From assembly GCA_963711795.1 (NCBI GenBank), contig CAVQFD010000007.1, forward strand, positions 38,085 through 102,084: a DNA stretch of 64,000 nt. Reading direction: 5' to 3'. The notes under the pieces are model-generated. The model did no database searches and was not told the origin of the DNA. It worked only from the letters and a program-made list of their open reading frames with translations. The stretch is from an uncultured Acidobacteriota bacterium. GTDB taxonomy: Bacteria > Acidobacteriota > Vicinamibacteria > Vicinamibacterales > CAVVIG01. The translations under genes were made by a program, and so were the position numbers. Of the stretch, positions 7,689 to 30,391 are shown one piece after another (the first letter of the stretch is position 1; the number at the start of each line of letters is the position of its first letter).

Positions 7689-7689
7689 G

Positions 7690-7746
7690 GTCCTTGGGAC
7701 TTGGTCCTTGGGCCTTAGGCGGGCCTTAGTCCTTGGTTCTTGGTTC
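7690..7746. repeat. Degenerate heptamer array TCCTTGG (reverse complement of CCAAGGA)
   Basis: TCCTTGG GACTTGG TCCTTGG GCCTTAG GCGG GCCTTAG TCCTTGG TTCTTTGG between convergent genes. Confidence 0.8.
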
Positions 7747-7750
7747 GTGG

Positions 7751-8858: not shown

Positions 8859-8859
8859 G

Positions 8860-11862: not shown

Positions 11863-11957
11863 GCTGCCTGCACATTTACCAGATCCACCGGCCACCCGCC
11901 ATGCCGGTGCTAAGCTCCGCCATACTGCCTCGAGTGAGCGCAGGGGGAGAGGCATCG

Positions 11958-12839
11958 ATGAAGGACGTGAAGAAGCTGATCGAGAAGCTCAGGGTGCGTC
12001 CGGGCCAGAAGGTGTCCCTGAAGCGTCACAGGACGGACTGGACCGCGGGCGTCGAGAAGGCGGACGCGCGACAGCTCCTCGACGAAGGCGTTGCGCAACT
12101 GGCACTTCAGCAGGAGATGCTCTACGCGCAGGACACGTATGCAGTCCTCATCATTTTTCAGGCCATGGATGCGGCGGGGAAGGACGGGACGATCAAGCAC
12201 GTGATGTCCGGGATCAATCCCATGGGCTGCCAGGTCTTCAGCTTCAAGGCGCCGTCGACCGAAGAGCGGGACCATGGTTTCCTCTGGCGGTCCTCGAAGG
12301 CGCTTCCGGAGCGCGGAAGGATTGGCATCCACAACCGTTCGTACTACGAGGAAGTGCTCGTGGTCAGGGTGCACCCGGAGATCCTCCATGCGCAGCAGCT
12401 GCCGGAGCACTTGAAGGGGAGTGGCATCTGGCGTGACCGCTACCGCCAGATCAATCAGTTCGAGCGTTACCTGGTCGACAACGGGACCATCCCGATCAAG
12501 TTCTTCCTGCACGTCTCGAAGGAGGAGCAGCGGCGGCGTTTTCTCGAGCGGATCGACCGGCCGGAGAAGAACTGGAAGTTTTCCGTCAACGATGCCAGGG
12601 AGCGCGCGCGTTGGGATGACTACATGAAGGCCTACGAAGAGGCCTTGACCGAGACCACCACGAAGCACGCTCCCTGGTACATCGTCCCGGCAGACAACAA
12701 ATGGTTCACGCGCGTCGCGGTTGCCGAGATTGTCAACCAGCACCTGAAGAAACTGCGCCTGGCGTTTCCGACGGTCACTGCGGCTCGAAGGAGGGAACTG
12801 CTTCAGGCCCGGCGGACGCTGCTCGGCGAACGGCGCTGA
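11958..12839 (+). CDS. ppk2: Polyphosphate kinase 2 family protein
   Basis: Walker A FQAMDAAGKDG, NRSYYEEVL, KNWKFS, PWYIVPADNKW. Confidence 0.93.
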   Translation: MKDVKKLIEKLRVRPGQKVSLKRHRTDWTAGVEKADARQLLDEGVAQLALQQEMLYAQDTYAVLIIFQAMDAAGKDGTIKHVMSGINPMGCQVFSFKAPSTEERDHGFLWRSSKALPERGRIGIHNRSYYEEVLVVRVHPEILHAQQLPEHLKGSGIWRDRYRQINQFERYLVDNGTIPIKFFLHVSKEEQRRRFLERIDRPEKNWKFSVNDARERARWDDYMKAYEEALTETTTKHAPWYIVPADNKWFTRVAVAEIVNQHLKKLRLAFPTVTAARRRELLQARRTLLGERR

Positions 12840-12860
12840 AGGCCTTCGCCTGGGCCGGAA

Positions 12861-13886
12861 TCAGCTTCTCGGGACCACGCCGAACGCGAGGAGGCTCTCG
12901 CCGCTGGCGGCAACCGCATCCTCGGGCGTGCGGGGTTTCCAGCCGAGCACACGCTCGGCCTTCGCGCTCGTCGCGCGCCGCGTGCTGTCGAGCAGCGGGA
13001 CGAGCGGCTGCATCTTCCGGTTGAACCGGGCGGCGAAGCGGACGAGCCAGCTCGGAAGTTCGCGCGTCGGCACCTTTTTCGCGGCCTCTCCCAGGCGCGC
13101 TTTCAGGACCCGGGCGATGTCGAACATCGACATGATGTCGCCCGACGCGGCGATGAAGCGCTCGCCCTTTGCGGCCGGACTGGTCATCGCGCGCAGGTGA
13201 AGATCGGCCACATCCCTCACATCGACAACGCCGAAGTAGAGCCGGGGGCAGCCGGGCATGCCCTTCAGCAGGCGGGTGATGAGCTCGAGTGAAGACGACG
13301 CGTCCGGCCCGAGCGCCGGCCCGAAGATGCCAACGGGATTGACCGCGGAGAGCTCCAGCGCGCCGCCCTCGGCCGCCATGAAGTCCCACGCGGCACGTTC
13401 CGCGACGGCCTTCGATCGCACGTAGGCGCTCATCTCGCCGGCGGTGTTGGTCCAGCTGGTTTCGTCGAACGGCGCCGCCTGCGGCGGATGTCCGTAGTAG
13501 ATCGCGCCGCACGATGAAGTGAGCACGACCCGCTTGACGCCATGGTCCCTTGCAGCCTTCAGCACCCGCAGCGTGCCGTCGCGGGCCGGCACGATCAGTT
13601 CGTCGTCGGTTTTCGGTGCCGCGGCTGGTATCGGCGAGGCGACGTGCAACACGTAATCGCACCCAGCCACCGCATCGGACCAGCCCGCATCGTGGCCGAG
13701 ATCGGCAGCGAAGAAGGCCAGCCGCTCGCCAGGGTCGGCGCCGCCGTTCTTCAGCAGCAGGCGAACGGCGGCCTCGCGGGTGAGGGAGCGCACTGTGGTG
13801 CGGACGGAATGGCCGGCTTGAAGCAGCTGCAGGATGACGTGGCTCCCAACGAACCCGGAGCCGCCGGTGACCAGTACTGTGCTCAT
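12861..13886 (-). CDS. NAD-dependent epimerase/dehydratase family aldehyde reductase
   Basis: VLVTGGSGFVG, HVASP, YVRSK catalytic motif, VDVRDVA. Confidence 0.9.
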   Translation of the reverse strand: MSTVLVTGGSGFVGSHVILQLLQAGHSVRTTVRSLTREAAVRLLLKNGGADPGERLAFFAADLGHDAGWSDAVAGCDYVLHVASPIPAAAPKTDDELIVPARDGTLRVLKAARDHGVKRVVLTSSCGAIYYGHPPQAAPFDETSWTNTAGEMSAYVRSKAVAERAAWDFMAAEGGALELSAVNPVGIFGPALGPDASSSLELITRLLKGMPGCPRLYFGVVDVRDVADLHLRAMTSPAAKGERFIAASGDIMSMFDIARVLKARLGEAAKKVPTRELPSWLVRFAARFNRKMQPLVPLLDSTRRATSAKAERVLGWKPRTPEDAVAASGESLLAFGVVPRS

Positions 13887-14007
13887 GAAGAAGACCTCTT
13901 CATTCTGCACGAGAAACGGGAGCGGATTGAGACCACGCGATCGGGGTGAGCTGGCGCCCGGAGGGCCGGATTGGGCCTCTCCAGGCGGCCGCGCTCGAGC
14001 CTGATGA

Positions 14008-15247
14008 CTAGTTGCCTCGTATGGTGGCCGAGAAGTTGTACTTGAACGAGAACTGCAGCTTGAGTCCTTCGCCGACGTAGGGATCCTGGAACATCTCGCG
14101 GCGGCCCCACTGCAGCTCCGCGCCGACCATCACCCCGGGCACCGGCGTGTAGAGCAGGTTGCCGAGCATGTACTGGCCCAGCCGGTACGCATCGGGGGCC
14201 TGGCCCTCCGTGTTGTCGATGTCCTGGTGCGAGTAACCCACCGCCGTCGACCACTGGCTGTTCCAGTTGTGATCCAGGAAGATCACGGTGCCGAGGAGCG
14301 GAATCGCCTCGCCTTTGATGGGCGTCACGAGGTTGCCGGGGTTGCGGACGATGCCGACGTCGACCGGCGCGTCGTTCATGTAGTTCTGGATGCCTTCGCC
14401 GTAGACCAGCTGGCCGCGGATCGTGGAGCTCGAGCCAAGCTTGATGTTCGTGCTGAAGTTGAGGCCCCAGCGCGTCGCACTGCCCGACAGGTCGAAGGCA
14501 TCGTCGCGCAGGTCATCCCACTCCATCCGGCCGAGCAGCCCCGCCACTTCGACGTAGCCCTTGGGCCCCCCATGCGGTACTCGCGCCGTGAGGTCGGGCA
14601 GCGGGATGCGCGCCCTGGACGTCCTGGAGCTCGATGCGGTCCGCGAGCAGGCCGGCGTCGCCGCTCGCGCCCGGCCGCTCGAGCGCAATGGTGAGGCGCG
14701 TGTCGCCCTGGATGGGCATACACCGCACCTGCACGTTCCGGAAGAACACCATGCCGGTCGGGCCCCAGTACTCGAGCGAGTTCGGGAAGACGTCGATGTC
14801 CATGAACGGGCTCCAGGTCTGGCCCGCCCCCCACTGGCCGAGCTCGCCGTAGGCGTGCCGCAGCCGGAACGTCGTCTGGCCTTCGTCCACGCCCGTGCCG
14901 AACATTTCGAACTCGAACGTGGTCCGCAGCTCGCCCATCGAGGTGGGCACGAAGCCCTTGACGCCCAGGCGGGTCTGGCGCACGCCGGCGAAGGTGCTCC
15001 CGTCCTCGCCGAACTCCTGGTCGAAGGACGGCAGGCGGTTGATGCGCATCGTGTCGTACCAGTTCGGGTCGATCGTCTTGAAGTTGAGGCCCATGTCGAG
15101 CATCGCAAACCCGTAGACGTCCATGCGCGGGCCCTCGGCTGCAGCCGGCTGCGCCTGCGCGGTTGACGGTGCTCCGATCAGGCCGATCAGCAGGAGCACG
15201 GCCAGACCGACGCCGCTGGCGTATCGGCAGCCCTTTCTCTGTCGCAT
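14008..15247 (-). CDS. DcaP-like outer membrane porin (frameshift near 14600)
   Basis: Signal peptide ending AQA, VYGFAMLD, RQTRLG, FEFEMFG, RLRHAYGELG, GQTWSPFMD, ELQWGRRE, LQFSFKYNF. Confidence 0.82.
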
Positions 15248-15311
15248 GTGAAATCCTCCTCGATCAGGTCGGGTCAAATCGGGTTCCACGCCCGATGCAG
15301 GTCTCGACTCA

Positions 15312-15327
15312 AGCACGGGGAATGCCA
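15312..15327 (-). promoter_or_regulatory. Putative sigma-54 promoter for the DcaP-like porin
   Basis: Minus strand TGGCATTCCCCGTGCT (GG-N10-GC), about 65 nt upstream of the start. Confidence 0.7.
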
Positions 15328-15613
15328 CCATCCTGATTCGATCGAGCCGTCAGCCAGGCACACCATTCCGGGCCTTGCGTCGTGCATGCGCACGCGGTCG
15401 ACTGCCTCGATTCGGGCGGGGCACGAAGTCCCCGAGGCACCTCTTAGCGATCCGATATTCCGGAGGATCTTCCGGTGGATGTGCAGGCTGAACGTCTCTG
15501 CCGCCCCTCTCACCGACAATCGAGTCGCTTAGTGCTGCTCTTGTCAGATAAGAATCGCGCCATCAGGATTGCCGCCGCGGAGTTCACTGTGCAAACAAAA
15601 AACCAACTTTCAG

Positions 15614-15629
15614 TGGCACATCCCGTGCA
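15614..15629 (+). promoter_or_regulatory. Putative sigma-54 promoter for the asparaginase unit
   Basis: TGGCACATCCCGTGCA (GG-N10-GC) preceded by an A-tract at 15593-15602. Confidence 0.72.
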
Positions 15630-15722
15630 CAATATGCTCACCGTGCCGCACGCAGGCGAGCACGTTCCAGTCCAGCGCGGTAAGGCGAGTGATGAGAAGC
15701 AATGATCAAACGCCAGGCGTAG

Positions 15723-16928
<1,206 letters not shown>

Positions 16929-16959
16929 GAGCGCGAGCGACTGCACAGGACTCCGGGCG

Positions 16960-18281
16960 CGAGGGGAACTGCTGAGGCGTGCGCGCGCTGGCAGGTGCCC
17001 TGGCTGGGCATCGCGTCCTGGTCGGCCCGTCCGGCAACGCGCTGGCCCAGCAGCCGGCGCAGCGACGACCGCAGCCCGATCCGTCACAACCCGCCGCCAT
17101 CGACGACACGATCACGCGGGCGAGGCCGAGAACGAGGCGCCCGCGCGGAAACTGGTGAACTGGAACGAGTACGAGGGCCGCTCGGATCGATCCGCTTCGG
17201 TGTTCGGCTTGCTGTGCGACTACGCCGACTACAGCCAGGACGACAACAGCAAGGAGCAGTTCGATCTGCTCGCCGCGGACAAGCTCAGCGACTTCCGCTT
17301 CCTGCTGTCAGGGACGCCTCAGGTTCAAGCGCCCGACGACCTGGAGCGCCGGGATCATGTACGACGCGCCAACAAGACAGTGGGTGATGCGGCAGACCGG
17401 CATCATGGTCGCCGTCCCCGAAATCTGGGGCCACATCTTCGTCGGCCGGACCAAGGAAGGCTTCTCGCTGAACAAGGTCATGATCGGGTACGGCGGGCTG
17501 GACCATGGAACGGACGCCGATGAACGACGCGACGATGCCGATCCTCGCCGACGGCATCAAGTGGCTCGGCTACGTCGCCGAAGGCGCCATGTCATCTGGA
17601 ACCTGGGGTTCTACGGGGATGCCATGTCGGAAGGGCAGACCTTCTCCACGTACGAAAACCAGGTCGCGGGCCGTGTCGCCTGGCTGCCGATGCTGTCGCC
17701 GAGACGGCGGACAATCTCCTCCACCTGGGCATGAACGCGCGCTACGGCAAGGCCAAGGACGGGCAAGATCCGCCTGCGTGCCCGGCCCGGGGCCTGGCCG
17801 GCGCCGTACTTCGATCGACACCGGGGAGTTCGCCGCGAAGAACAGCACCATGACCGGGCGTGGAGATCTACTACCGGCCGGGCCGCTTCACGATGGGTTC
17901 GGAGTACTTCTTCCAGACCGTCGACGCGCCCGAGTCCGGCGATCCGTTCTTCCACGGCGGCGACGTTTTCGCCACGTGGCTGATCACTGGTGAGACGCGC
18001 ACCTACAACACGCGCGGCGGCTACTTCAACAGATTCGCCGCAGCGCACGGTCTTCTCCGGCGGCCCCGGCGCCTGGGAGATCGTCGCGCACTATTCCTAC
18101 ACGGATCTCGACGCGCGGCACGCTGACGGGCGGCAAGTTCTGGCGATTCACGCCGATGGTGAACTGGTACCTGTCCGACAACGTGCGCCTCGAGGGCGCC
18201 TACGGCTACGGCTCGCTGAATCGTTTCGGCACCGTCGGCAAGACGCAGTTCTTCCAGACCCGCATTCAGCTTCAGCTGTAG
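16960..18281 (+). CDS. OprO/OprP-like porin, multiple frameshifts, start approximate
   Basis: Fragments FVGRTKEGFSL, MERTPMNDA, WLITGETRTYN, GAWEIVAHYSYTDL, TPMVNWYLSDNVRL, terminal TRIQLQL. Confidence 0.75.
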
Positions 18282-18428
18282 TGGCCGCTACGGCCCACCG
18301 GAGTTTTTGGGCTTCGGTCGGAGGTGGCCCGGACTATTTGGTGAGGCCTCCCTCGCTTTGGGCGGCCTCTGGACCCCACGCGGGGCTGATTTTCAGCACT
18401 GTCCTGCGTCCGATTCGTCAGGGTTGTC

Positions 18429-18444
18429 TGGCACAAGTCCTGCT
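18429..18444 (+). promoter_or_regulatory. Putative sigma-54 promoter for the serine dehydratase unit
   Basis: TGGCACAAGTCCTGCT (GG-N10-GC), about 150 nt upstream of ATG 18594. Confidence 0.75.
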
Positions 18445-18593
18445 AAAGTCAACACGCCTGTCCACCGCGAGCCCACGTCGTCATGACTGCCTTGAGATCT
18501 GCGCATTTAGAAGTAAGAGACTGAAACAACCGTCAGCCCACTCGCGGTTCTATCGCCGGTCGGCACAAGAATTCAAAGGAGCTGGAGAAATAC

Positions 18594-20225
18594 ATGTCCA
18601 ACAATGACGACGTGAAAAACGACAACCGTGGTCCGTTCGACGGTGTGCCACAGGTGCCATCGGAAATTCCGACTGGCGTCGACCGTCGGAAATTCATCAT
18701 GCGCAGCGCCGTGATCTCGGCAGCAGCCGTGATGACCGGCTGCACGCGATCGGAGACTGAACAAAAGGCCCCGCCGCCGGCAGCCGAAGCTCCAGCGGGG
18801 TCCGCTGCGCCCTCTGTCCCGTTGGCTCCCGACTTGAACGTGGTGATGAAGGCCAAGGGCCCGGTGTTGACGACGGTGGACGAGTTCTACAAGGTGGGGC
18901 CTGGCCCTTCCAGTTCGCACACCATTGGTCCGATGCGCATCACCTACGATTTCTACCAGCGAGCCGCCGCGCTGCCGGCCGACAAAACAGCCACGGCGAC
19001 GAAGCTTCAGGTGAACCTGTTCGGAAGCCTCAGCGCGACGGGCAAGGGACACGGCACGGAACGAGCCGCGCTCGCAGGGCTGGTCGGGAAAGAGCCGGCA
19101 ACGGTTGACCCTCTGTTTCTGGATAGCCTGCGAGACAAGCCTGACCAGGTGTTCCCGGTGAAGCTGGGCGCCAAGTCCATCGATGTGAGCCTCAAGGACG
19201 TCATCTACGATGCCACCAAGGGCGACTTCAAGCACCCGAACACGATGACGGTCAAGCTCCTCGCCGGCAACGATGTGCTGCTGGAGCAGGAGTACTACTC
19301 AGTGGGCGGCGGATTCATCGAGTGGAAGGGGTATACGCCGCCGAAGAAGAACCCGCCGAAGTACCCGTTCGCGACGATGAAGGAGCTGCGCGCGCACGCC
19401 GACAACAACAAGACCACAATCGCCAAGGTCATGCTTGCCAACGAGATGTCGATCACAGGCAGATCGGAAGCGGAGGTGTATGCCTTCGTCGACAAGATCA
19501 TCAACGCGATGGTCGCGACGGTAAAGTCGGGGCTTTCGATGCCGGAAGATGACGTGCTGCCTGGTCCGATCAAGCTGCATAGCAAGGCAGCGACCGTCTA
19601 CAAGCGCGTCATGAACGACAAGATCGAATCAGACCGCGGTATCGGTGCTCTGTCGGCGTTCGCAATTGCGGCATCCGAAGAAAACGGGCGCGGCCACCTC
19701 GTGATCACCGCTCCAACCGGCGGTTCCGCCGGAGTGATGCCGGCCCTGGTCTATGGGCTGCTCCAGGTCCGGAAGGTCGAACTGCAGAAGGTCCGTGACG
19801 GCATGCTCGCCGCTGCGGCGATTGGCTATCTCTGCAAGCACCATGCGACGCTGTCTGCGGCCGAGGGTGGCTGCCAGGCGGAGATCGGCGTGGCGTCGTC
19901 GATGGCTGCCGCATTGACCGCGACCGTGTATGACGCACCATCGCTGGTAGTCGAGAACGCGGCCGAATCGGCCCTGGAACATCACCTCGGCATGACATGC
20001 GACCCGGTCGCCGGTTACGTGCAGGTTCCGTGCATCGAGCGCTGCGCCTTCGGCGCGGTCAAGGCCTGGACGGCCTTCGCGATCGCCAGCAACGAGATCG
20101 CGTCCAGGCACCGTGTCAGCTTCGACGAGACCGTACTGGCACTGGCCCAGACCGCGAAAGAGATGAACAGCAAGTACAAGGAAACAAGCGAGGCTGGTCT
20201 CGCTCTCTCCGTCGTGCTCTGTTGA
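18594..20225 (+). CDS. sdaA: Fe-S L-serine ammonia-lyase (single-chain SdaA type) with N-terminal Tat lipoprotein signal
   Basis: KVGPGPSSSHTIGPM, LFGSLSATGKGHGT, YSVGGGFI, APTGGSAGV, GGCQAEIG, LGMTCDPVAGYVQVPCIER; N-terminal DRRKFI...AAAVMTGC. Confidence 0.95.
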   Translation: MSNNDDVKNDNRGPFDGVPQVPSEIPTGVDRRKFIMRSAVISAAAVMTGCTRSETEQKAPPPAAEAPAGSAAPSVPLAPDLNVVMKAKGPVLTTVDEFYKVGPGPSSSHTIGPMRITYDFYQRAAALPADKTATATKLQVNLFGSLSATGKGHGTERAALAGLVGKEPATVDPLFLDSLRDKPDQVFPVKLGAKSIDVSLKDVIYDATKGDFKHPNTMTVKLLAGNDVLLEQEYYSVGGGFIEWKGYTPPKKNPPKYPFATMKELRAHADNNKTTIAKVMLANEMSITGRSEAEVYAFVDKIINAMVATVKSGLSMPEDDVLPGPIKLHSKAATVYKRVMNDKIESDRGIGALSAFAIAASEENGRGHLVITAPTGGSAGVMPALVYGLLQVRKVELQKVRDGMLAAAAIGYLCKHHATLSAAEGGCQAEIGVASSMAAALTATVYDAPSLVVENAAESALEHHLGMTCDPVAGYVQVPCIERCAFGAVKAWTAFAIASNEIASRHRVSFDETVLALAQTAKEMNSKYKETSEAGLALSVVLC

Positions 20226-20232
20226 TCGAATG

Positions 20233-20277
20233 GGCTCCTCGCTCGAACTCGGCTTGAGGAGGGTTCGGCGAGGAGCC
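20233..20277 (+). terminator. Hairpin after sdaA, possible intrinsic terminator or mRNA stabiliser
   Basis: GGCTCCTCGC...GCGAGGAGCC stem extended by CGAAC/GTTCG, followed by TTCACTTCTT. Confidence 0.6.
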
Positions 20278-20390
20278 TTCACTTCTTCCCGGCGATGGCT
20301 CGCCAACTCACGGGCTACTCCATCGCTTCGTGAGTGTCGCAGGCCCTGTACTCCAAACAAAACGGATTGGCTCCGGGAGGGCGATTAAAC

Positions 20391-21765
20391 GTGTCGATAC
20401 CCCGTGCATTCACGGCTTCGGTCGCATTGGCGTTGACGTTCGTTCCGTTGCTCGCGACTCCTGCCTCCGGACAGTCTCCTGCAGCCCCGCCAGACAGCAC
20501 CGTCGCCGTTTCAGAAGACACAGCAAAGTACTTCAGTGCAGGCGGCATCCGCTGCCGCACCACCGGCAAACGACGATCGTTACAGAGATGGAATTGTCAT
20601 CTGGGAAACGCCTGCAGACGCCCAGGTGCCTTTCCTGTTGCGATTCAACATCAACACCCAGCTCCGATATCTGAATACACTTTCGTCGGACGAAACTTAC
20701 ACCGACCATCTCGGCGTTGTCCGTGAAGTTAACAGGCGCAACGACATCACGGTCAATCGCGCGATGTTCATCCTGGGCGGTTACATTTTCGACCAGAGGG
20801 CGCGATACAGCTTCACGGTCTGGACGTCCGCAGGGGCCGCCTCGATCATCGTCGCCTCGAACATTGGCTGGCAATTCCACAGGGCCCTGACGGTCACTGC
20901 GGGTTACACCGGGGTTCCAGGCAGTCGATCGCTGGTCAACACATTTCCATTTTTTCAGGCGATCGACCGGACCATGTCGGATAACTTCTTCCGTCCCGGC
21001 TTCACCCAGGGCGCCTGGGCCAACGGAGAAGTCGTGACGAACCTGCACTATCTGGCGTTCGTCGGCAACGGTCTCAATACCTTGAATATCTCGGCGACCA
21101 AGATCGATTCGAATCTGCTCACGTCCGGAAGTGTCTGGTGGGAACCGATGGGACCCTACGGAGAACCGGGCAAATCACGAAACATGTACGACGACTATTT
21201 CTCCTCCAGGAAGGCTCGTATTCGAATTGGCACCTCGTTTACGAGGTCGCGCGAGGACCGTTTCTCGAATCTCGATCAATCAAGTCCTGAGAACACCTCA
21301 CTGTACAATTCCGACGGCGTGCTGACCTTTTCGACCGGAGCGTTTGCGCCGGGCGTAACGGTCGACAAGGCGTTGTACAAGATGTGGGCCGTCGACGCCG
21401 GCATCAAATGGAACGGGCTCGCGGTCAACGGGCGGTACTTCACGCGCTGGCTCGGTGATTTCGTCGCCACCGAACGGCTTGAGCTCGAGTCCACGTTTGA
21501 CCACGGCATTGAGTGGACAGCGGGTCATTTCGTAATTCCCAGGAAGCTCCAGGTGTATGGCCGCGGGGGCCACGTCTTCGGACACTTTGGCGACTCTTCC
21601 GAGTATGGCGGCGGGGTCAGGTGGTATTACCTGCCGACCGAGCGACTGTGGCTCAACCCGGAGCTGCTCCGGGTCAACAAAGCTCCTTACAGCGGCGCCT
21701 TTACCCCGTATACGGCGGGTCTCAACGGGTGGGTGCCGATGCTGCAGGTGGTCCTCGCCTTTTAA
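20391..21765 (+). CDS. Hypothetical outer-membrane beta-barrel protein (frameshift near 20530)
   Basis: Signal peptide in one frame, then aromatic-rich amphipathic strands and C-terminal Phe (LQVVLAF). Confidence 0.7.
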
Positions 21766-21837
21766 CCCCACGGGTACCGCCGCGGCTGCAGGGGCGTCCC
21801 GCTCTAACTCAGCCAACTGAAAAATCCGGCAGGACGG

Positions 21838-21853
21838 TGGAAGGCGAATTGCT
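21838..21853 (+). promoter_or_regulatory. Putative sigma-54 promoter for the ABM gene
   Basis: TGGAAGGCGAATTGCT (GG-N10-GC, perfect TTGCT); predicted +1 falls about at the ATG. Confidence 0.5.
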
Positions 21854-21864
21854 AAGGCACAGGC

Positions 21865-22188
21865 ATGGTCCGGCTGCATGTCGCCCTTGGCGCGGCGCCC
21901 CGACGGGCACAGGCGATCGCCGAGGCCCTGCAGTCCATGCAGATTTCAACGAGGCTCGAGCGGGGGTGCCTGGGCTGCAGCGTCTGGCAGGAGGGAGACG
22001 GCCAGGTGCACTACAGCGAGGAATGGGCGACTGAGGACGATTTACAGGCGCGGGTTCGATCGCCGCGGTTCGTCTCGTTGATCTCGCTGATGGAAGCGGC
22101 CAGCGAGCCTCCGAAGGTCCAGTTCCAGTTCGTTGAGCGGACGCGCGGGCTCGAGTACGTGGAGGAGGTTCGAGGCCCGGGCGATTGA
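21865..22188 (+). CDS. Antibiotic biosynthesis monooxygenase (ABM)-like dimeric barrel protein
   Basis: 107 aa, TRLERGCLGCSVW, YSEEWATEDDLQARVRS. Confidence 0.72.
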   Translation: MVRLHVALGAAPRRAQAIAEALQSMQISTRLERGCLGCSVWQEGDGQVHYSEEWATEDDLQARVRSPRFVSLISLMEAASEPPKVQFQFVERTRGLEYVEEVRGPGD

Positions 22189-22268
22189 GACCGCTCTGGC
22201 GCGGCAGGCGACCTCCTGCCGCGACGGTATTCCGGGGGAACTCCGGTGCCGGGCGCCGCGGCTGGCCC

Positions 22269-24032
22269 TCACGCGCCTGGACGGCGTATTCCCAGCTTGG
22301 TCATGCGCGTTTCGAGCGTCGTCGGCTTGAGGCCCAGGCGCTCGGCCGCCCCGCCTTCGCCCCTGATACGCCAGCCGGCGAGCTCGAGGACGCTGCGGAT
22401 GTGATCGTACTCGACGTCGGTCAGCCTTGCGCTTCGTCTCGCCGCTGGCGCCTTTTGCGGCGGCGCGACCTGGGCCGGCAGCGGGATTGCCAGTCGAGGG
22501 CCTGTCGCGACAATCATCGCGCGTTCCACGACATTACGAAGCTCCCGGATATTGCCCGGCCAGGCGTACTTCTGAAGCGCGGCCATGGTCTCGCGCGGAA
22601 TCGTGTCCACCCGCTTGCCGAACGCCTTCGAAAACTCCTCGACGAAGCGCCAGACGAGCATGGGAATGTCCTCAAACCGGTCCCGCAAGGGCGGCACCTG
22701 GATCGGGAACACGTTGAGCCGGTAGAACAGGTCCTCCCGGAAGTCGTCGCTGGCAATCCGCTGCTCCAGGTTCCGGTGCGTGGCCGCGATGATCCGCACG
22801 TCCACATGGATGCCCCTGGGGTTTCCGAGACGCTCGATCTGCCGCTCTTCGAGCACCCGCAGCAGCTTGACCTGGATCTCGGCCGGAACATCGCCGATCT
22901 CGTCGAGGAAGATCGTCGAGTGATCGGCGAGCTCGAAGCGCCCGATCTGCCGTGCCAGCGCGCCGGTGAAGGCGCCCTTGTCGCGGCCGAACAGCTCGCT
23001 TTCCATCAGCGTCGCGGGGATCGCCGAGCAGTTCACGCGGACCATCGGCCGCCCGCGGCGGGCGCTCATCTCGTGGATCTGCGTCGCGAACAGTTCCTTG
23101 CCTGTGCCCGTCTCTCCTAGCAGCAGGACCGTGGAGTCGGTGGCGGCCACCTGCCGGATCTGATCCAGGACACCACGCACTGCCGTGCTCTGCCCGACGA
23201 CGATTCCGCTGCTGAACCCGTCCTGGATACCGGGACGCGGCGCTCGCGCCTCTGCCTGCCAGTCATCGGGTGAGCGGGGTACCTGCACGGCCGTCGCGTA
23301 GCCCCGAGCAGGCTGCGTCCGCAGCACCTGAAGCTCGTCGCGCGCCTCCTGCAACGACCTGAGAGACGCCTGGCGTGCCAGCGCCTGGCCGATGACGGCC
23401 GAGGCGAGCTTCAACTGGTTGACGAGGGCGGGCGTCCATGGTTGCGCACGCATCGAGGCCACACCAAGCGCTCTCCGCGTTCCAGAGGTGTCGGCCGGCA
23501 ACAATGGCACCACCACCATCGATCGGAGATCGCAGCGTTCAAACGCCTCGCGGTCAACGATGTCGGAGAGATCGTCGACGCTTCCGAACCAGCCCGGCTC
23601 CCCGGCATCCAGCTTCGCAGCAACGAAAGACGTGCTGGCGAGAGCCGGCGGTTCTGGCGCCGCCGGGTCACGGCGCACGATCCAGTAATGGGTGGCGACC
23701 ACGGGCGCGTCGGCGCGCGCCCTTTGCCACAAGAACGTGCGGTCGAGGGCCAGCAGATCGGCGATTCCTTTCAGGGCGTCGAGGATTGCGCGGTCGATGG
23801 CATCGGGATCCTCGGCGACAGCCCGCGAGGCCAGGTCGGTCATCAGGGACTGCACCGCGATGAGATCGCTCAGCTCCATGACACGTCCCAGGCTCATGAT
23901 CGTGTCCTCGCGCTCCTGGTGCGCGGCTTTCACAGTGTCTCCAACGCCCGCGAAAATGGCGCGGTCTCTGAGCGTCGCCCAGGTCATCCCGTCGTCCAGC
24001 CAGTACGCCTTCATTTCAGCAGTTAGAGACAT
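22269..24032 (-). CDS. Sigma-54 enhancer-binding protein (GAF-like, AAA+, HTH; FhlA-like)
   Basis: [57 protein letters not shown]. Confidence 0.95.
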
Positions 24033-24053
24033 GATGATGCCCTCAGTGCGAGG

Positions 24054-24452
24054 TTATGCGGCAGCCTGACTTCGAACGGCCGCGCGGAGCGTTTCCGACG
24101 GCGCTTCGCCGAACGCCGCTCTGTACGCGGCTGAAAACCGACCGAGCTCGTAGAATCCGTACCGGGTTGCAATATCGGTCACGGTGACGGCCCGCCGCTC
24201 GTCGGCGACGAGTGCCATCCGCGTGGCCAGCAGCCGTTCCGCCAGCAGCCAGCGCGTGGGGCTCATGCCATGCACGGTGTAGAAGGCGCTGCGCAGGCCG
24301 CGCTCGCTGCGTCCGAGCATTCGACACAGCCTCGAGATCGACACGCGGTCGGCCAGGTGGTTCCGCAGGTAGACCTCTGCGCAATCGACCACCGCCTGGC
24401 GCGATTCCCGTGCCCTCGCGTAACCGCCCCGGTTGCCACCTGTCAGTCCCAT
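24054..24452 (-). CDS. Short AraC family regulator (essentially HTH domain only)
   Basis: SERGLRSAF, GMSPTRWL, VTDIATRYGFYELGRFSAAYRAAFGEAPSETL. Confidence 0.85.
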   Translation of the reverse strand: MGLTGGNRGGYARARESRQAVVDCAEVYLRNHLADRVSISRLCRMLGRSERGLRSAFYTVHGMSPTRWLLAERLLATRMALVADERRAVTVTDIATRYGFYELGRFSAAYRAAFGEAPSETLRAAVRSQAAA

Positions 24453-24589
24453 GAGCGGATAACCTACTGAAGGACCGTGACTTCGAGAACTCGGCGATCT
24501 GTCAGGATTGTGTCGAAAAACTAACAGTATCCACCCTGTCATATTTACCAGGCCCCGGGAATCTGAGAGGATGGGCCTCCCTGAGACGC

Positions 24590-26419
24590 ATGCCAAGCCT
24601 GCCTCGAAGTACGTCGTTCGTGCAACGGCTGGCCCTGATACTGCTGGCCCTCGCTTTCTATGGCCCGGATGCCGCCCGAGCCCAGGACCGCCAGAAGCAG
24701 GTACTGGTCCTGTACTCCACGAGGTGGGACGCCCAGGTGGCCGTCGTGGGCGAGCGCGAGCTGCCGCGCATCCTCCGCGAAGGCCTGCCGGAGGGGTTCG
24801 ACTACTACTCCGAGTACATCGATCAGGGGCGATTTCCCGCCCCGGCCTACCTGAATGCGCTCGAGGACTTCCTTCGCTGGAAGTACCAGGCACGCCGGTT
24901 CGATGTCGTGATCGCCATGAGCGACGCCGCGTTGGCGTTCGTCACGAGGAACCGCACCGACTTGTTCCCCGATGCGGCCGTCGTGTACATCACGAGCTCC
25001 GTCAATACGCCGCGCTTGCCGAATTCCACGGGGATAGTGTCCGGCCTCAACCTGGGCGGCTCTCTCACGCTCGCCGCCGAGTTGCACCCCGACCTCCGGA
25101 ACGTCTTCGTCGTGGCAGGCAGCGGCCCCGATCGTGCCTACGAGGCGATGGCGCGAGAGCAGTTCCAGGCGCTCGAAGCTCGCTTCACTTTTACCTACCT
25201 CACGGGCCTGCCAACCAGCGAACTCGAGACACGCCTGTCCGCGCTGCCACCGCACTCCATCGTCTACTACCTGGTGACCAACCAGGACGGAGCGGGCGAG
25301 CGGTTCCACCCGTTGGATTACCTGGATCGCCTGGCGGCGGCTTCCAGCGCGCCGATCTATTCATGGGTGGATTCGGCGATGGATCACGGCATTGTCGGAG
25401 GCTACCTCAAGAGCCAGCAGGACGAGATCGAAGCGGTCGGCCAGCTGGCGACGCGGGTGCTGCGCGGAGAGCCTGCCGACGCCATTCCGGTCTCGGCGCC
25501 CGACTTACGCTCCAACCTCGTTGACTGGCGGCAGCTGCGGCGGTGGGGCATCGACGAGGCGCGGGTGCCCGCCGGCACGGTCACCATGTTCCGTGAGTTC
25601 ACCGTGTGGAGCCGCTACAGGGTCTACATCCTTGCCGCACTCGTGCTGCTCCTGGCACAGACCGGCCTGATCGTGGGTCTGAGCGTGCAGCGGACGAGAC
25701 GGCGGGAGGCCGAAGCACGCCTGTTGAAGGGCCAGGCGGACCTGCGAACGAGCTACGAGCGCATTCGGGATCTCGGCGCCCGGCTGCTCAAGGCGCAGGA
25801 CGATGAGCGTTCGCACCTGGCGCGGGAGCTGCACGACGACATCAGCCAGCAGATGGCGCTTCTCGAGATCGATCTGGAGCTCCTGTCCGCGGGCACTGAG
25901 GGCAATGCCAGGGAGTCCGTCGCGCACGCAGTGGCCAGGGCACAGTCCATCACGCGCGGCATTCACGATTTGTCCCACCGCCTGCATCCGGCCCGGCTGC
26001 GCCTGATCGGCCTGGTGTCCGCGATTTCCGGTCTTCAACGCGAGCTGGCTGGTGAAGGTGTCGCGATTTCATTCACTCACGAGAACGTGCCGCCTGCGAT
26101 TCCGCCGGACTTGACGCTGTGTGTATTCCGGGTCGTCCAGGAGGCACTCCACAACGCCCTCAAACACAGCGGGACACGGCAGGTATCCGTGCACTTGAGC
26201 GGCGAGGCCGGCGCTCTTGCGGTGACCGTCGCCGACAGCGGCGCCGGGTTCGACGTGAAGAACGCCTGGGGGAAGGGGCTGGGCCTCCTCAGCATGAGCG
26301 AACGCCTCGAAGCCATGGGCGGCATGCTCGAGGTCCGGTCTTCGCCCGGGTCTGGCACCACGCTACGATTCCGGGTGCCCGTGCACCCCGTCGACGACGC
26401 GGGAGCCGTCGCAGTTTGA
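24590..26419 (+). CDS. Sensor histidine kinase (HisKA_3) with periplasmic binding-protein-like sensor
   Basis: Signal peptide, large periplasmic region, single TM, LARELHDDISQ, VVQEALHNALKHS, DSGAGF, GLGLLSMSER. Confidence 0.92.
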   Translation: MPSLPRSTSFVQRLALILLALAFYGPDAARAQDRQKQVLVLYSTRWDAQVAVVGERELPRILREGLPEGFDYYSEYIDQGRFPAPAYLNALEDFLRWKYQARRFDVVIAMSDAALAFVTRNRTDLFPDAAVVYITSSVNTPRLPNSTGIVSGLNLGGSLTLAAELHPDLRNVFVVAGSGPDRAYEAMAREQFQALEARFTFTYLTGLPTSELETRLSALPPHSIVYYLVTNQDGAGERFHPLDYLDRLAAASSAPIYSWVDSAMDHGIVGGYLKSQQDEIEAVGQLATRVLRGEPADAIPVSAPDLRSNLVDWRQLRRWGIDEARVPAGTVTMFREFTVWSRYRVYILAALVLLLAQTGLIVGLSVQRTRRREAEARLLKGQADLRTSYERIRDLGARLLKAQDDERSHLARELHDDISQQMALLEIDLELLSAGTEGNARESVAHAVARAQSITRGIHDLSHRLHPARLRLIGLVSAISGLQRELAGEGVAISFTHENVPPAIPPDLTLCVFRVVQEALHNALKHSGTRQVSVHLSGEAGALAVTVADSGAGFDVKNAWGKGLGLLSMSERLEAMGGMLEVRSSPGSGTTLRFRVPVHPVDDAGAVAV

Positions 26420-26549
26420 TATGCGATCGGATCTGCGCGACAGCTGCCGTGCCGATTCTGCATAGCCGGGGGCCGCGCCCTGGCCCTAACCTTCGCGTGT
26501 GGGAATCGGGCAGGTCTACGCGATCCGTCGGAGGACTAGTGTTGCCGTC

Positions 26550-27179
26550 ATGAGGGGGCCCCGCGTTCTGCTCGCCGACGATCATGCGCTGCTTCTCGCC
26601 GCGTTCGAGAAGCTCCTGGCAGACGAGTGCGAGATCGTCGGCACGGCCAGCGACGGCCGCGCCCTTGTCGCCGCAGCCGAACGGCTCCAACCCGATCTCA
26701 TCGTCCTCGACATCTCCATGCCGCTCTTGAACGGCCTTGAAGCGGGCCGGCAGATCAAAAAGAAGCTGCCGCGCGTCAAGCTGGTGTTCCTGACGATGAA
26801 CGAGGATGCCGAGCTGGCAGCCGAAGCGTTCCGCATCGGCGCGTCCGGGTATCTGCTGAAACGATCGGCGGCGTCGGAGCTCTCGACGGCGATTCGCGAA
26901 GTTGCGCAAGGCCGTTCGTATGTGACGCCGCTTCTGACAGAAGCGCTCGTCGGATCGCTCTTGGCCGACGGCGGCCGCCACCACGCGCCTGAGCTCACGC
27001 CGAGGCAGCGCGAAGTGCTCCAGCTGCTGGCGGAGGGTCAATCGATGAAGGAGGTCGCCAGCACGCTGAATCTCACGCCGAGGACGGTCGCCTTTCACAA
27101 GTACGAAATGATGAGAAAGCTGAACGTCAAGTCGACCGCGGAGCTGATTCAGTATGCCGTCAAGCAGCACGTTGTCTAA
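26550..27179 (+). CDS. NarL/LuxR family response regulator
   Basis: LADDH, LDISMP, LTPRQREVLQLLAEG, TVAFHK. Confidence 0.93.
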   Translation: MRGPRVLLADDHALLLAAFEKLLADECEIVGTASDGRALVAAAERLQPDLIVLDISMPLLNGLEAGRQIKKKLPRVKLVFLTMNEDAELAAEAFRIGASGYLLKRSAASELSTAIREVAQGRSYVTPLLTEALVGSLLADGGRHHAPELTPRQREVLQLLAEGQSMKEVASTLNLTPRTVAFHKYEMMRKLNVKSTAELIQYAVKQHVV

Positions 27180-27564
27180 GCTGGCGCGCGTCCTCCTCGT
27201 GGACGACAACGAGGCGATGCTGAAGCGGGCGTCTGCAGTTCTCTCTCCCCACTTCCTGATCGTGGAGAAGGTGCAGGACGGACAGTCCGCGCTCGACGCC
27301 GCACAGACGCTGCAACCGGACGTCATCGTGCTGGATATTTCGATGCCCGGGATGACCGGCCTCGAGATCGCGTCGCGCCTGCGCCGCAGCGGTTCAACCG
27401 CCGCCGTGGTGTTTCTCACGGTCCACGACGAGGAAGACTTCGTCCTGGCGGCGAAAGCCGCCGGCGCGATCGGGTACGTCGTGAAGACCCGGCTCGTCTC
27501 GGACCTCGTGGTCGCGGTTCAGGAAGCCCACGCCGGGCGTTCCTTCGTGTCGCCGATTCGCTGA
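27154..27564 (+). CDS. Stand-alone receiver domain protein
   Basis: LVDDN, LDISMPGMTG, FLT, YVVK; no output domain. Confidence 0.88.
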   Translation: MPSSSTLSKLARVLLVDDNEAMLKRASAVLSPHFLIVEKVQDGQSALDAAQTLQPDVIVLDISMPGMTGLEIASRLRRSGSTAAVVFLTVHDEEDFVLAAKAAGAIGYVVKTRLVSDLVVAVQEAHAGRSFVSPIR

Positions 27565-27578: not shown

Positions 27579-28007
27579 TCAGAGCAAGCCGTGCTTCCTC
27601 ATCTCCTCGGTCTGATCGGTGTGAGAGATGTACGCCAGTACGCGCCAGCTGTCGCGGGTTTCTTCGAGGAGATAGGAAATATCGAACTCGATTGAGCGAT
27701 CGCCGCTCCTCTCGAACTGCGCACCCCACGTGACCGTCGTCAGCGTGTGGCGGAGACCCAGCATTTCGTCCTGGATGGTCACCACATCGAGCGCGCGCAT
27801 GCCATGCTCGCGGTTGAAGGCGGTAACCTGGTCCAGCCAGTCGAGGAAGCGCTGGTCGTTGTGGAATGCCTGGCTGCCCTGCGGACCGGCGACGATGAAC
27901 GTCGGGGCGTAGAGCGCCGCCAGCTCAGCGGATTTGCCGTTCAGGGAGAGCGCGGCGTATTGCGTGAAGAACGTGATCAACGGTATCGCGCTGCCCACGT
28001 CCGGCAC
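27579..28007 (-). CDS. Hypothetical NTF2-like protein
   Basis: 142 aa ORF, YAALSLNG...LAALY, ISYLL...WRVLAY pattern. Confidence 0.6.
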   Translation of the reverse strand: MPDVGSAIPLITFFTQYAALSLNGKSAELAALYAPTFIVAGPQGSQAFHNDQRFLDWLDQVTAFNREHGMRALDVVTIQDEMLGLRHTLTTVTWGAQFERSGDRSIEFDISYLLEETRDSWRVLAYISHTDQTEEMRKHGLL

Positions 28008-28054
28008 CCTGCGAATTGAGTGCCAGAACCCGAATCAACTCGATTGCTGAGCTC

Positions 28055-29884
28055 TCAGGACGCGGTTCGCACGTACTCGTCCACGTTTCGCGCCAGCACA
28101 TCGAGCGGCACGTTGCCGCCGAGCACGACGGTGTCGTTGAATGCCTTGACGTCGAACCGCCCGCCGAGCTTCGTCGTTGCCAGCTCGCGTTGACGGTTGA
28201 TCTCGCTGTGTCCCACTTTGTAGCCGCAGGCCTGCCCGGGCCATGAGCAATAGCGGTCCACCTCGCTCGACACTTCCAGCGGGTTCGACCCGTTCATCTC
28301 GACGAAGAACTGCACGCCCTGCTCCCGCGTCCAGCCCTTGACGTGAATCCCCGTATCCACCACCAGGCGGCACGCACGGAAGGCGATCGACTGCAGATAC
28401 CCGAGACGCCCGACGGGTTCGCTGTCGTACGCGCCGAGCTCGTCGGCCAGCTGCTCGGCGTACAGGCCCCACCCTTCCGAAAACGCGTTGAAGGCAAGCA
28501 ACTGTCTGACGAGCGGCATATCGTGCGTGTACTCGCCCTGCCAGATGTGGCCGGGAATCGATTCGTGGAACGCCAGGTCGGCGAGGCTGTACCTGCTGTG
28601 GAGGTCGGTCGTGCTCAGGTTTATCCAGAAGCGTCCGGGGATCTTCCCGTCGATGGACCCGGCGCCCCCGTACGCGGCTGGAGCGCCTGGCTCCTCCTCG
28701 GGCGGCAGGCGCCTGACTTCCATGTTCGGGTTGACGACGGTGTTGAAGGCGCGGGGCATTTGCGAGCGGATCCAGCCGAGGCGTTCCTGGATGAACGCCA
28801 TGATCTCGGCGCGGCCCTTGTCGCCGTCCGGGAATTGATACTTCGGATCCTTGGCCAGCGCGTTCATCCGTTCGCCGACCGCTCCCCGCGAATAACCGAT
28901 CCCCTTCAGAATCCCGTCCATTTGTGCGTGGAGCCGCTCCAGCTCGCTCAGGCCCATCGCATGGACCTCGTCGGGCGTCATCCCAGTGGTCGTCGAGGCT
29001 TTGAGCGCCCAGCGGTAATAGTCCTGGCCGTGCGGTCGCGCCCCCATCCCGGCGTCGATGGTTGCCACGTTACGCTGTGCCTGCAGCTCCGCGATCTGCC
29101 GCTCGAGCGCCGGCGCAACCTCCTGTGCCGCGATCGTCCGCGCGCGCACGGCCCAGTTGCCAGGGATCTCTTTCGTGCGCCTTGCAAGGGACTCGACGAG
29201 CACGCCGCCATCGCGGGCATTCCTCACCGACGCACCCATCTGCGCCAGGGCCTTGTCGATCAGAAACGCGGGGGGAACCAGGCCCGCGCCCCGCGCCGCC
29301 TGCATGCGGCCCAACTCGCCATCGAGCTGCCTGGCGTAGGACTGGACGCGAGCCAGGTAGGCCTCCGCATCGGCGGCGTTCTCGATTTGATGATCGCTAT
29401 CGAGAAAGCGGGGCACGTCGAGATACGCGCCCACGTTCTGGATGACGACGTAGGGCGTGTTGCGCCAGCCGCCGACGGCCACATCGCCGTAGGGAAGCGC
29501 GAAACCCTGCACCGCTGTCGCGTAGGCGCTTCGAACGACCTCGACGCTGGTCCGGGTGTTGTGGGAGAGGCCCGAGGTGTCGAGGGCACTCGCCCGCTCG
29601 AGATCCCGCTTCAGCTGCGACACCATCTGCTGCTGGCCGGCAGCCGAGCGATCGGAGAGCTGTCCGCGAAGGCCGGCTCGTGCACCCGTGTCGATGCCCA
29701 GTGAGGTCGCGCTCTCCGGTGCCAGCCGCAGCAGGTTCTCGCCGATGTCGTCGAGCAGCGCGCGCGCGTCCGCGTCGCTGGCCGCCGCCGGCGCGACGCC
29801 GGCGCGCTCGGCGCTGCACCCGGACGCGAACGGCAGGACCGTGGTCGACGCCAGTGCCAAGAGAGCGTCTCGGCGGCTGATCAA
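28055..29884 (-). CDS. DUF885 family putative metallopeptidase, Tat lipoprotein (start uncertain)
   Basis: SRRDAL...ASGC, HESIPGH, EGWGLYAE, RLVVDTGIH, PGQACGYKVG. Confidence 0.9.
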   Translation of the reverse strand: MISRRDALLALASTTVLPFASGCSAERAGVAPAAASDADARALLDDIGENLLRLAPESATSLGIDTGARAGLRGQLSDRSAAGQQQMVSQLKRDLERASALDTSGLSHNTRTSVEVVRSAYATAVQGFALPYGDVAVGGWRNTPYVVIQNVGAYLDVPRFLDSDHQIENAADAEAYLARVQSYARQLDGELGRMQAARGAGLVPPAFLIDKALAQMGASVRNARDGGVLVESLARRTKEIPGNWAVRARTIAAQEVAPALERQIAELQAQRNVATIDAGMGARPHGQDYYRWALKASTTTGMTPDEVHAMGLSELERLHAQMDGILKGIGYSRGAVGERMNALAKDPKYQFPDGDKGRAEIMAFIQERLGWIRSQMPRAFNTVVNPNMEVRRLPPEEEPGAPAAYGGAGSIDGKIPGRFWINLSTTDLHSRYSLADLAFHESIPGHIWQGEYTHDMPLVRQLLAFNAFSEGWGLYAEQLADELGAYDSEPVGRLGYLQSIAFRACRLVVDTGIHVKGWTREQGVQFFVEMNGSNPLEVSSEVDRYCSWPGQACGYKVGHSEINRQRELATTKLGGRFDVKAFNDTVVLGGNVPLDVLARNVDEYVRTAS

Positions 29885-29894
29885 GGCCTGACGG

Positions 29895-29959
29895 GGCAGG
29901 GAAGGCAGGCCGGGCGGGCAGGGCAGGCGGGGCGGGTAGGGCGGGTAGGGCTGGCGGGG
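29895..29959. repeat. G-rich 9-nt tandem repeat, about 7 units
   Basis: GGCAGGGAA GGCAGGCCG GGCGGGCAG GGCAGGCGG GGCGGGTAG GGCGGGTAG GGCTGGCGG. Confidence 0.75.
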
Positions 29960-30005
29960 TTTTCTCATCACGAACATTCTAAACGGCGGCACTCCGCCGC
30001 CTGGC

Positions 30006-30382: not shown

Positions 30383-30391
30383 TGCCCCGTG

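Follow-up and report, generated by a model that had tools for sequence, protein, structure and literature searches.

Do the genes between positions 14008 and 27564 of the DNA studied here constitute a single system for the deamination of amino acids in the periplasm, or are they separate modules that stand side by side? The window, i.e. the whole stretch of 64,000 nucleotides that we analysed (G000:C7:38085-102084, G+C content about 66%), stems from an uncultured bacterium whose assembly, G000, comprises 4.86 Mb in 9 contigs with a completeness of 81.6%. It appears to derive from a Vicinamibacterales-like acidobacterium, and the closest labelled carriers of its sdaA gene are metagenome-assembled genomes of Acidobacteriota, Vicinamibacterales, Pyrinomonadaceae and Blastocatellia. 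We established the gene order from a listing of open reading frames (ORFs) together with Pfam and NCBIfam profile searches, and probably the locus is best read as three adjacent, separate envelope modules accompanied by regulators. The modules are a lone DcaP-type porin, a secreted type II asparaginase (AnsB) with a porin of the OprO/P family, and an L-serine dehydratase (SdaA) with a porin of OprP/OprO fold. The last of these forms the core, in which a [4Fe-4S] enzyme with a signal for twin-arginine translocation (Tat) would deaminate serine in the periplasm next to a porin of its own, with subsequent import of the pyruvate. The frame breaks that disrupt several of the genes would, on the same reading, be errors of the assembly.

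The sdaA gene (18594-20225, plus strand) has an intact frame, and its product unites the domains SDH_beta (PF03315, 137.8 bits) and SDH_alpha (PF03313, 218.5 bits) in one chain. It scores above the equivalog cut-off of TIGR00720 for L-serine ammonia-lyase (395.4 versus 345.1 bits) and aligns over residues 89-542 with the L-serine dehydratase of Legionella pneumophila (PDB 4RQO, E 1.2e-88), which likewise is a single chain with a beta and an alpha domain. Four cysteines, C427, C469, C480 and C543, align with those of the Legionella enzyme and are invariant in an alignment of 27 sequences; three of them we take, from the 4RQO structure, to hold the [4Fe-4S] cluster, and the C-terminal one to be the 'tail' residue. 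By family the protein is thereby classed as a [4Fe-4S] type 2 L-serine dehydratase, which would convert L-serine into pyruvate and ammonia. A second copy lies on contig C5 of the same genome, and a tblastn search of that genome returned no third. In an even sample of 201 acidobacterial genomes, SdaA is present in 39, which fall into two types: five (including G000 and G256) carry a protein 59-100% identical to that of the window, with the match reaching into its N-terminal extension (from query residue 13-64), whereas in the other 34 the identity is 37-42% and the match mostly begins only at about residue 90. The SdaA of the window thus belongs to a clade that is separate from the ordinary acidobacterial enzyme.

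What distinguishes this clade from the Legionella enzyme is the extension of 88 residues at its N-terminus, with a twin-arginine signal and, in the window protein, a lipobox-like cysteine. In residues 1-88 of the latter, the motif DRRKFIM is followed by a hydrophobic stretch, the lipobox-like VMTGC and then a linker rich in proline and alanine; read by eye, the signal of the window protein runs from DRRKFIM through SAVISAAAVMTG to the cysteine. For comparison we used the best 80 sdaA loci of at least 567 relatives, with one genome per species, and searched them with the window proteins or their intact orthologues over a neighbourhood of 10 kb around sdaA. The twin-arginine motif RR-x-F is found in 78 of the 80 loci, the two exceptions being frame-broken, and R31, R32 and F34 are invariant in the 27-sequence alignment. 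At the lipobox position, 33 of the 78 have a cysteine (MNGC in 18, MTGC in 13, LTGC and SISC in one each), and the remaining 45 have no cysteine and instead a site of the V-S-A type that resembles a signal peptidase I site. Since the signal is kept in two forms, lipobox or V-S-A, the pattern is the one expected under selection on export. The SdaA of G000 is probably lipid-anchored and that of over half of its relatives probably soluble. Both SdaA copies of G000 carry the signal, and the genome encodes Tat machinery (TatC, PF00902, 211.2 bits, at G000:C2:283229-283864).

The partner of sdaA is a beta-barrel gene (20391-21765, plus strand), which lies directly 3' of sdaA in 60 of the 80 loci, or in 55 of 70 when only loci with at least 1500 nt of downstream sequence are considered; in one further locus it lies upstream. 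It carries a signal peptide, and many of its orthologues have an N-terminal coiled coil, with 14 of 29 members giving a weak match to TolA_bind_tri; none of the 29 matches a Pfam barrel family. The first-pass annotation had called this protein an unknown beta-barrel. The barrel is upheld, and a fold can now be proposed: the AlphaFold2 model is all-beta (predicted local distance difference test, pLDDT, 67.6; predicted template-modelling score, pTM, 0.71), and its top Foldseek matches are OprP (2o4v, E 4.7e-11) and OprO (4rjx and 4rjw, the latter with E 4.2e-10) at a template-modelling score of 0.54. The protein Atlas likewise places it in porin/Porin_O_P clusters at 0.98. The best fold matches are thus the channels of Pseudomonas aeruginosa (PDB 2O4V, 4RJW), to which the barrel is only 10-11% identical and from which it further differs in lacking a Pfam family, in the coiled coil of many orthologues and in not being phosphate-regulated as far as visible. 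The pore of OprO/P is lined by an arginine ladder and a lysine cluster; in the alignment of sdaA-linked porins seven arginines are invariant. The barrel is accordingly predicted to be a porin of OprP/OprO fold from an undescribed family, outside PF07396. The likeness is at the level of the fold only, in contrast to the porin linked to ansB, which is a true member of PF07396.

Upstream of sdaA lies a sigma-54-type motif, TGGCACAAGTCCTGCT (18429-18444, plus strand), which stands about 150 nt ahead of the ATG and has 1 mismatch. If up to 2 mismatches are allowed, such a motif occurs upstream of the gene in 28 of the 78 loci with enough upstream sequence, versus 1 of 78 reverse-complement controls, and G000 possesses rpoN (Sigma54_DBD, 222.9 bits, on C4). 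Transcription of sdaA probably starts from a sigma-54 promoter at this conserved motif, for which the adjacent activator with a GAFTGA motif is a plausible, though unproven, regulator.

The second SdaA copy, with its Tat signal and lipobox, stands at G000:C5:893917-898963 and is followed by genes for a transporter of the major facilitator superfamily (MFS) and for proteins that resemble phosphate acetyltransferase (Pta) and acetate kinase (AckA), the last two recognised when their translations were read by eye; some 3.5 kb upstream of the copy there is a sigma-54 activator of the GAF type. The best, sub-threshold matches of the transporter are to the anion:cation symporter (ACS) group. An MFS transporter lies 3' of sdaA or flanks it in 11 of the 80 loci, nine of which also have a Pta-like gene and six of these an AckA-like gene as well. 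Loci of this type include L049, L062, L065, L068, L075, L076, L078, L079, L086 and, partly, L048. The full order sdaA, porin, MFS, Pta, AckA is found in L075, L078 and L079, and in L086 with the porin upstream of sdaA; L019 has only Pta- and AckA-like genes, upstream of sdaA. This context would agree with pyruvate arising in the periplasm, entering the cell as an anion and being turned into acetate with a gain of ATP, and the link between exported sdaA and MFS genes speaks for a use in carbon and energy supply no less than for the purposes of ammonia release discussed below.

A route can be proposed from these elements. Serine would cross the outer membrane through the dedicated porin. SdaA, having received its iron-sulfur cluster in the cytoplasm, would be exported in the folded state by Tat, as its signal suggests, and its family membership and presumed location would have it split L-serine into pyruvate and ammonium in the periplasm. 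The MFS, Pta and AckA genes suggest that an organic-anion MFS transporter would import the pyruvate, which would then pass through acetyl-CoA and acetyl-phosphate to acetate, and the ammonium would be assimilated.

The alternative that survives best is the one put forward in the first-pass annotation, namely that the whole of 14008-27564 is one sigma-54 system for acid neutralisation or nitrogen scavenging, in which the neighbouring activator, AraC-type and two-component genes would be the regulators and each exported deaminase would have an outer-membrane channel to itself. We consider it unlikely, although parts of it are sound. Every gene that it listed is present, no inner-membrane amino-acid transporter lies inside 14008-27564, a GAFTGA activator adjoins the genes, and a second GAF-type activator is found near the SdaA copy on C5. 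It is also established enzymology that all three enzyme types release ammonium, and a report on Mycobacterium tuberculosis (PMC3930563) ascribes to a secreted asparaginase a role in nitrogen assimilation and acid resistance. The synteny, however, is weak. Within 10 kb of sdaA, DcaP is found in 18 of the 80 loci. The kinase, the LuxR-type regulator and a homologue of the sigma-54 activator are present in 5 loci each, AnsB (with an identity of 50% or higher) and an ABM protein in 3 each, and the porin of the ansB type in 2. The claim of one syntenic system therefore has to be abandoned: with neighbour counts so low, the 13.5-kb stretch is a neighbourhood of separate modules, in which only sdaA and its barrel form a conserved unit. 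The ansB-type porin is scarce in the order as a whole (E of 1e-40 or lower in 6 of 101 genomes), and the AraC gene is a mere helix-turn-helix (HTH) stub. The ABM gene, tried as a member of an sdaA operon, was rejected in view of its presence near sdaA in only those 3 loci.

The sigma-54 motifs lead to the same division. It had been stated that a motif precedes each unit, and indeed sigma-54-like motifs stand in the window ahead of DcaP (TGGCATTCCCCGTGCT, 15312-15327, minus strand, 2 mismatches, about 65 nt before the start) and ansB (TGGCACATCCCGTGCA, 15614-15629, plus strand, 1 mismatch, about 220 nt before the start) as well as sdaA; the match before the ABM gene is weak (21838-21853, plus strand, 2 mismatches, 12 nt from the ATG), and directly ahead of the barrel there is none with at most 2 mismatches. 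A bare GG-N10-GC is, by our estimate, expected about every 85 nt at the G+C content of the window. The motif count over the window is at chance level, with 26 motifs of at most 2 mismatches versus 23.05 expected, and 4 of at most 1 mismatch versus 1.45 expected, a number reached by 7 of 100 shuffles; we therefore relied on the comparison of orthologues. In this comparison, with up to 2 mismatches allowed, a motif precedes AnsB in 0 of 3 loci and is absent at G021; the ansB orthologue of G004 has one. Before DcaP orthologues the count is 0 of 15. Sigma-54 control, originally proposed for the locus as a whole, thus retains its support for sdaA and loses it for ansB and DcaP, whose motifs in the window are not conserved.

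The pairing of an exported deaminase with its own channel fares better, since modules of this kind recur independently of each other, and the idea is sound on those terms: for sdaA by virtue of its downstream porin, and for glutaminase with DcaP and asparaginase with its porin as modules in their own right, though not as parts of one system. Operons with the order Amidohydro_2, DcaP-type porin and secreted glutaminase (PF04960) occur at G000:C2:757232-760430 (minus strand), G000:C5:936331-940973 (plus strand), L075:276-5714 and L085:1740-7215; the operons on C5 and in the relatives additionally contain a paralogue of the sdaA-linked porin, with 33-36% identity to it.

The DcaP-like outer-membrane porin of the window (14008-15247, minus strand; signal peptide recognised by eye) belongs to PF19577, with 61.5 bits for its N-terminal piece (frame 14513-15331) versus a cut-off of 27, and an intact relative in L085 reaches 74.6 bits. 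Its family is that of DcaP of Acinetobacter baumannii, a porin that prefers dicarboxylates; the window gene and its paralogues match above the cut-off, and the orthologues have an N-terminal coiled coil. Unlike the Acinetobacter gene, members of the family here and in relatives share operons with genes for a secreted glutaminase and for an Amidohydro_2 protein. The DNA of the window gene is 97% identical to that of a second copy on G000:C2, and only over 14004-15155, the mature part. DcaP was considered as part of the ansB unit and rejected, given that its orthologues lie in glutaminase operons and that the window copy is a near-duplicate, in the mature part only, of the copy on C2.

The type II L-asparaginase gene ansB extends from 15852 to about 16925 (plus strand), with the Pfam matches to the N- and C-terminal asparaginase domains falling on separate frames and a Sec-type signal peptide that, by eye, ends in AYA-QA. 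Its intact orthologue in G021 scores 428.3 bits against TIGR00520 (cut-off 314.3). The OprO/P-family porin follows at about 16980-18281 (plus strand; PF07396); its best fragment in the window reaches 19.9 bits, the intact G021 orthologue 74.3 bits versus a cut-off of 20.9, and the order ansB-porin is also found in G021. Ahead of the porin orthologues with 58-59% identity at L090:1168-2754 (G039:C1) and L095:1170-2754 (G021:C7), no more of ansB is present than its final 85 or so codons, and these remnants look like a block duplication of the ansB 3' end together with the porin. At L006:1-1435 (G021:C10), a Lyase_1/FumaraseC_C gene (aspartase-like), split over two frames, stands directly upstream of an intact ansB-porin pair. 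The asparaginase and DcaP parts of the locus are ordinary.

A different question is whether the exported enzyme acts on serine at all. It might be directed at L-threonine, D-serine or phosphorylated or peptide-bound serine, and the channel, if selective for anions, would then admit an anionic substrate. The nearest fold matches of the partner porin, which are phosphate- and diphosphate-specific channels, its seven invariant arginines and the limited identity of the exported clade to ordinary acidobacterial SdaA (just 37-42%) all lean this way. On the other hand, the protein lies above the equivalog cut-off for L-serine ammonia-lyase and keeps both the cluster cysteines and the C-terminal cysteine of the characterised enzyme, and no phosphatase or peptidase is seen in the conserved pair. 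We regard another substrate as distinctly improbable.

Slightly less probable again is that the N-terminal extension is no working export signal, in which case the enzyme would remain in the cytoplasm or on the cytoplasmic side of the membrane, and its neighbour, the porin, would have no functional link to it. The Tat-signal model TIGR01409 gives SdaA only 13.2 bits, under its cut-off of 16.7, and the Pfam TAT_signal model does not match it. The lipobox consensus is [LVI][ASTVI][GAS]C; in VMTGC the glycine at -1 and the threonine at -2 fit, and the methionine at -3, present also in VMNGC, is unusual. Moreover, described SdaA enzymes are cytoplasmic and served by an inner-membrane serine transporter: a review on Campylobacter jejuni (PMC4178425) describes an oxygen-labile, cytoplasmic SdaA paired with the serine transporter SdaC, and the genes sdaC and sdaA are neighbours there, whereas the sdaA of the window is beside a porin gene. 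Against a non-functional extension stand the retention of RR-x-F, hydrophobic stretch and cleavage-type site in two alternative forms throughout nearly all loci, the proline/alanine-rich linker that follows the signal, and the fact that the partner is an outer-membrane protein in three quarters of the loci, 60 of 80. Beside sdaA no serine transporter gene was seen, and the transporter that does co-occur with it is of the organic-anion type.

There remains the state of the genes themselves. Four genes of the window are broken by insertions and deletions (indels), which the first-pass annotation had not noticed: DcaP, ansB, the OprO/P-like porin and the sdaA-linked barrel. The DcaP gene is spread over two frames with a break near 14583. 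ansB occupies four frames, and alignment to the intact orthologues of G021 and G004 reveals 7 single-base insertions and 0 deletions; every frame piece is 83-97% identical in amino acids to the G021 orthologue, and there are no stop-creating substitutions. The OprO/P-like porin is scattered over many frames and, compared with three orthologues, has 11 indel events within the gene (seven insertions of one base, one of 2 bases, two 1-base deletions and one 2-base deletion), and the alignment contains 2 further events at the ends of the aligned stretch. In the barrel gene the signal peptide (GTG at 20391) and the body lie in different frames, with the break at about 20500-20540. Frame breaks are dense in window positions 5000-18300, where they affect an FtsX-type permease, an ATP-binding cassette (ABC) importer, DcaP, ansB and its porin, and rare in 18500-64000, apart from a DUF6351 gene with its split near 32790 and two signals, one at 36748-37227 and one at 49528-49878.

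Contigs from four independent public runs, compared with the window over 14000-21800, lack one base at 14583 (run X6), 16125/6, 16337/8 and 16447-9. Their cover is low in places, e.g. 16871-18436, and such parts were left uninterpreted. The RNA runs X17-X20 contain just 6-9% of the sampled words. As a proxy for frame breaks in the whole genome we counted coding segments in which the coding signal stops more than 75 nt ahead of the in-frame stop. This applies to 1094 of 4775 segments in G000, and to 87 of 377 (23.1%) on C7 and 55 of 333 (16.5%) on C3, versus 23 of 302 (7.6%) in a 400-kb part of a closed genome belonging to the same order, so that the rate in G000 is 2-3 times that of the closed relative. 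Because independent contigs lack the extra bases and because the excess extends over the genome, the breaks are most likely consensus errors of the assembly and not gene decay. The public contigs come from other samples and show intact close relatives, not the source organism itself; the evidence is therefore strong, not final. That the breaks are real, with DcaP, ansB, its porin and the barrel as decaying pseudogenes and only sdaA still working, is very improbable: the breaks do cluster at 5-18.3 kb, genes past 18.5 kb are mostly intact and sdaA, in the middle, is break-free, but all seven ansB indels are insertions of one base in a gene without stop-creating substitutions and with high identity to its orthologue, exactly the extra bases are missing from independent contigs, the excess of breaks over the closed relative spans the whole genome, and completeness is low although the genome is in just 9 contigs. 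Annotators would call these four genes pseudogenes though they are most likely intact, and statements on gene content or 'gene loss' in G000 hence need care.

Several points weigh against our reading of three modules with an exported serine dehydratase at their core, and to the signal scores, the unusual lipobox and the origin of the public contigs given above others have to be added. We infer the export, lipidation, activity and substrate of the enzyme and the selectivity of the porin from sequence. In a soil bacterium, a [4Fe-4S] enzyme that is labile to oxygen would meet oxidants once it is in the periplasm. The porin is missing from 15 of the 70 loci whose downstream sequence is long enough, and in 50 of 78 the sigma-54 motif was not found before sdaA. 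The confidence of the barrel model, judged by its pLDDT, is moderate. Profiles of the sdaA-linked and the ansB-linked porin, compared with hhalign, gave a probability of 6%, which is not significant, and we therefore do not call the two porin types one family. OprP and OprO are anion channels and serine is a zwitterion, which leaves the cargo of the barrel in doubt. Finally, the MFS matches lie under every curated cut-off, and the MFS, Pta and AckA genes lie outside the window.

The regulatory genes and the remaining features of the locus complete the picture. Between the sdaA stop and the barrel, a hairpin at 20232-20277 (plus strand), identified by folding against shuffled sequences, is strong, with a free energy of -36 kcal/mol (z -2.2) that 6 of 200 shuffles match, and is followed by no U-run; a simple terminator scan, itself at chance level, did not list it. 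The hairpin could act as a partial terminator or stabilise the mRNA. A sigma-70 scan gave 1 site, within the barrel gene on the other strand, which is at chance level. Downstream of the barrel follow the ABM-domain protein (21865-22188, plus strand; PF03992, 35.3 bits) and, on the minus strand, the sigma-54 enhancer-binding protein (22269-24032), identified by Pfam, with its GAFTGA motif, a Fis-type HTH and 278 N-terminal residues that match no Pfam family. The AraC-type HTH gene (24054-24430, minus strand; HTH_18, 61.3 bits on the C-terminal part) has a coding signal only in its last 110-125 codons (about 24075-24467), its 5' part overlapping the kinase ORF on the other strand, and is either a short protein or a remnant. 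Pfam and NCBIfam further identify, all on the plus strand, a HisKA_3 histidine kinase (24590-26419), a LuxR-type response regulator (26499-27179) and a single-domain response regulator (27154-27564). The periplasmic part of the kinase (24590-25800) weakly resembles ABC substrate-binding proteins (PF04392, ABC_sub_bind, E 0.017; TrpX-like, E 6.4e-4), which hints at a sensor of small molecules.

Outside these limits, the sole transporter near the locus consists of pieces of an ABC importer (TOBE_2, ABC_tran, BPD_transp_1) in several frames at 7757-11800 (minus strand). Just past 27564, an ORF of 142 codons (27579-28007, minus strand) has a good coding signal and no Pfam match, and directly upstream of it is a sigma-54-like motif, TGGCACTCAATTCGCA (28010-28025, minus strand, 1 mismatch). 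Two DUF885 paralogues of 645 and 600 amino acids follow in tandem at 28055-32194 (minus strand), each covering the full Pfam model.

The theme of deaminating an amino acid outside the cytoplasm and importing the acidic product is shared with AnsB of Pseudomonas, with AnsB and GGT of C. jejuni and with Helicobacter pylori, which reportedly has deamidase-transport systems of the same kind. Pseudomonas AnsB is described as a periplasmic deamidase whose acidic product the cell then takes up, in connection with the AatJQMP transporter locus under the control of AauR and RpoN (PMC7962211), and in C. jejuni GGT and the secreted AnsB combine periplasmic deamidation with uptake of the product (PMC4178425). 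Sigma-54 and an enhancer-binding protein are thus also involved in the Pseudomonas system. The enzymes of these three groups, however, are cofactor-free amidohydrolases that are exported by Sec and act on asparagine and glutamine, whereas the enzyme described here, a dehydratase with an Fe-S cluster and a Tat signal, presumably acts on a neutral amino acid, would have pyruvate as its product and has an outer-membrane channel as conserved partner. Our literature search, which covered titles and the beginnings of abstracts, with subscription journals outside its scope, found no description of an exported SdaA. As far as can be told, therefore, a Tat-signal SdaA with a private porin is undescribed, while the theme of periplasmic deamidase plus uptake is already known.

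SdaA-type dehydratases are regarded as cytoplasmic enzymes that are fed by an inner-membrane serine transporter. We put forward a wider proposal more tentatively, as one that is slightly more doubtful than not: that Vicinamibacteria and Blastocatellia have moved an oxygen-sensitive Fe-S L-serine dehydratase to the periplasm via Tat and given it a private channel from a new porin family, and that this pair, together with the glutaminase-DcaP and asparaginase-porin modules, follows a strategy of 'deaminate outside, import organic acid and ammonium separately', by which amino-acid transporters are bypassed. If true, the strategy would reach, for the first time, a neutral amino acid and a cofactor-bearing enzyme, and would do so in abundant soil bacteria; it would likewise enlarge the range of Tat cargo by an Fe-S enzyme of amino-acid catabolism. 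In addition, the finding gives a family of porins without a Pfam model a role that can be tested. An exported SdaA clade with its own porin would, if true, shift the site at which the carbon and the nitrogen of serine are split in widespread soil bacteria.

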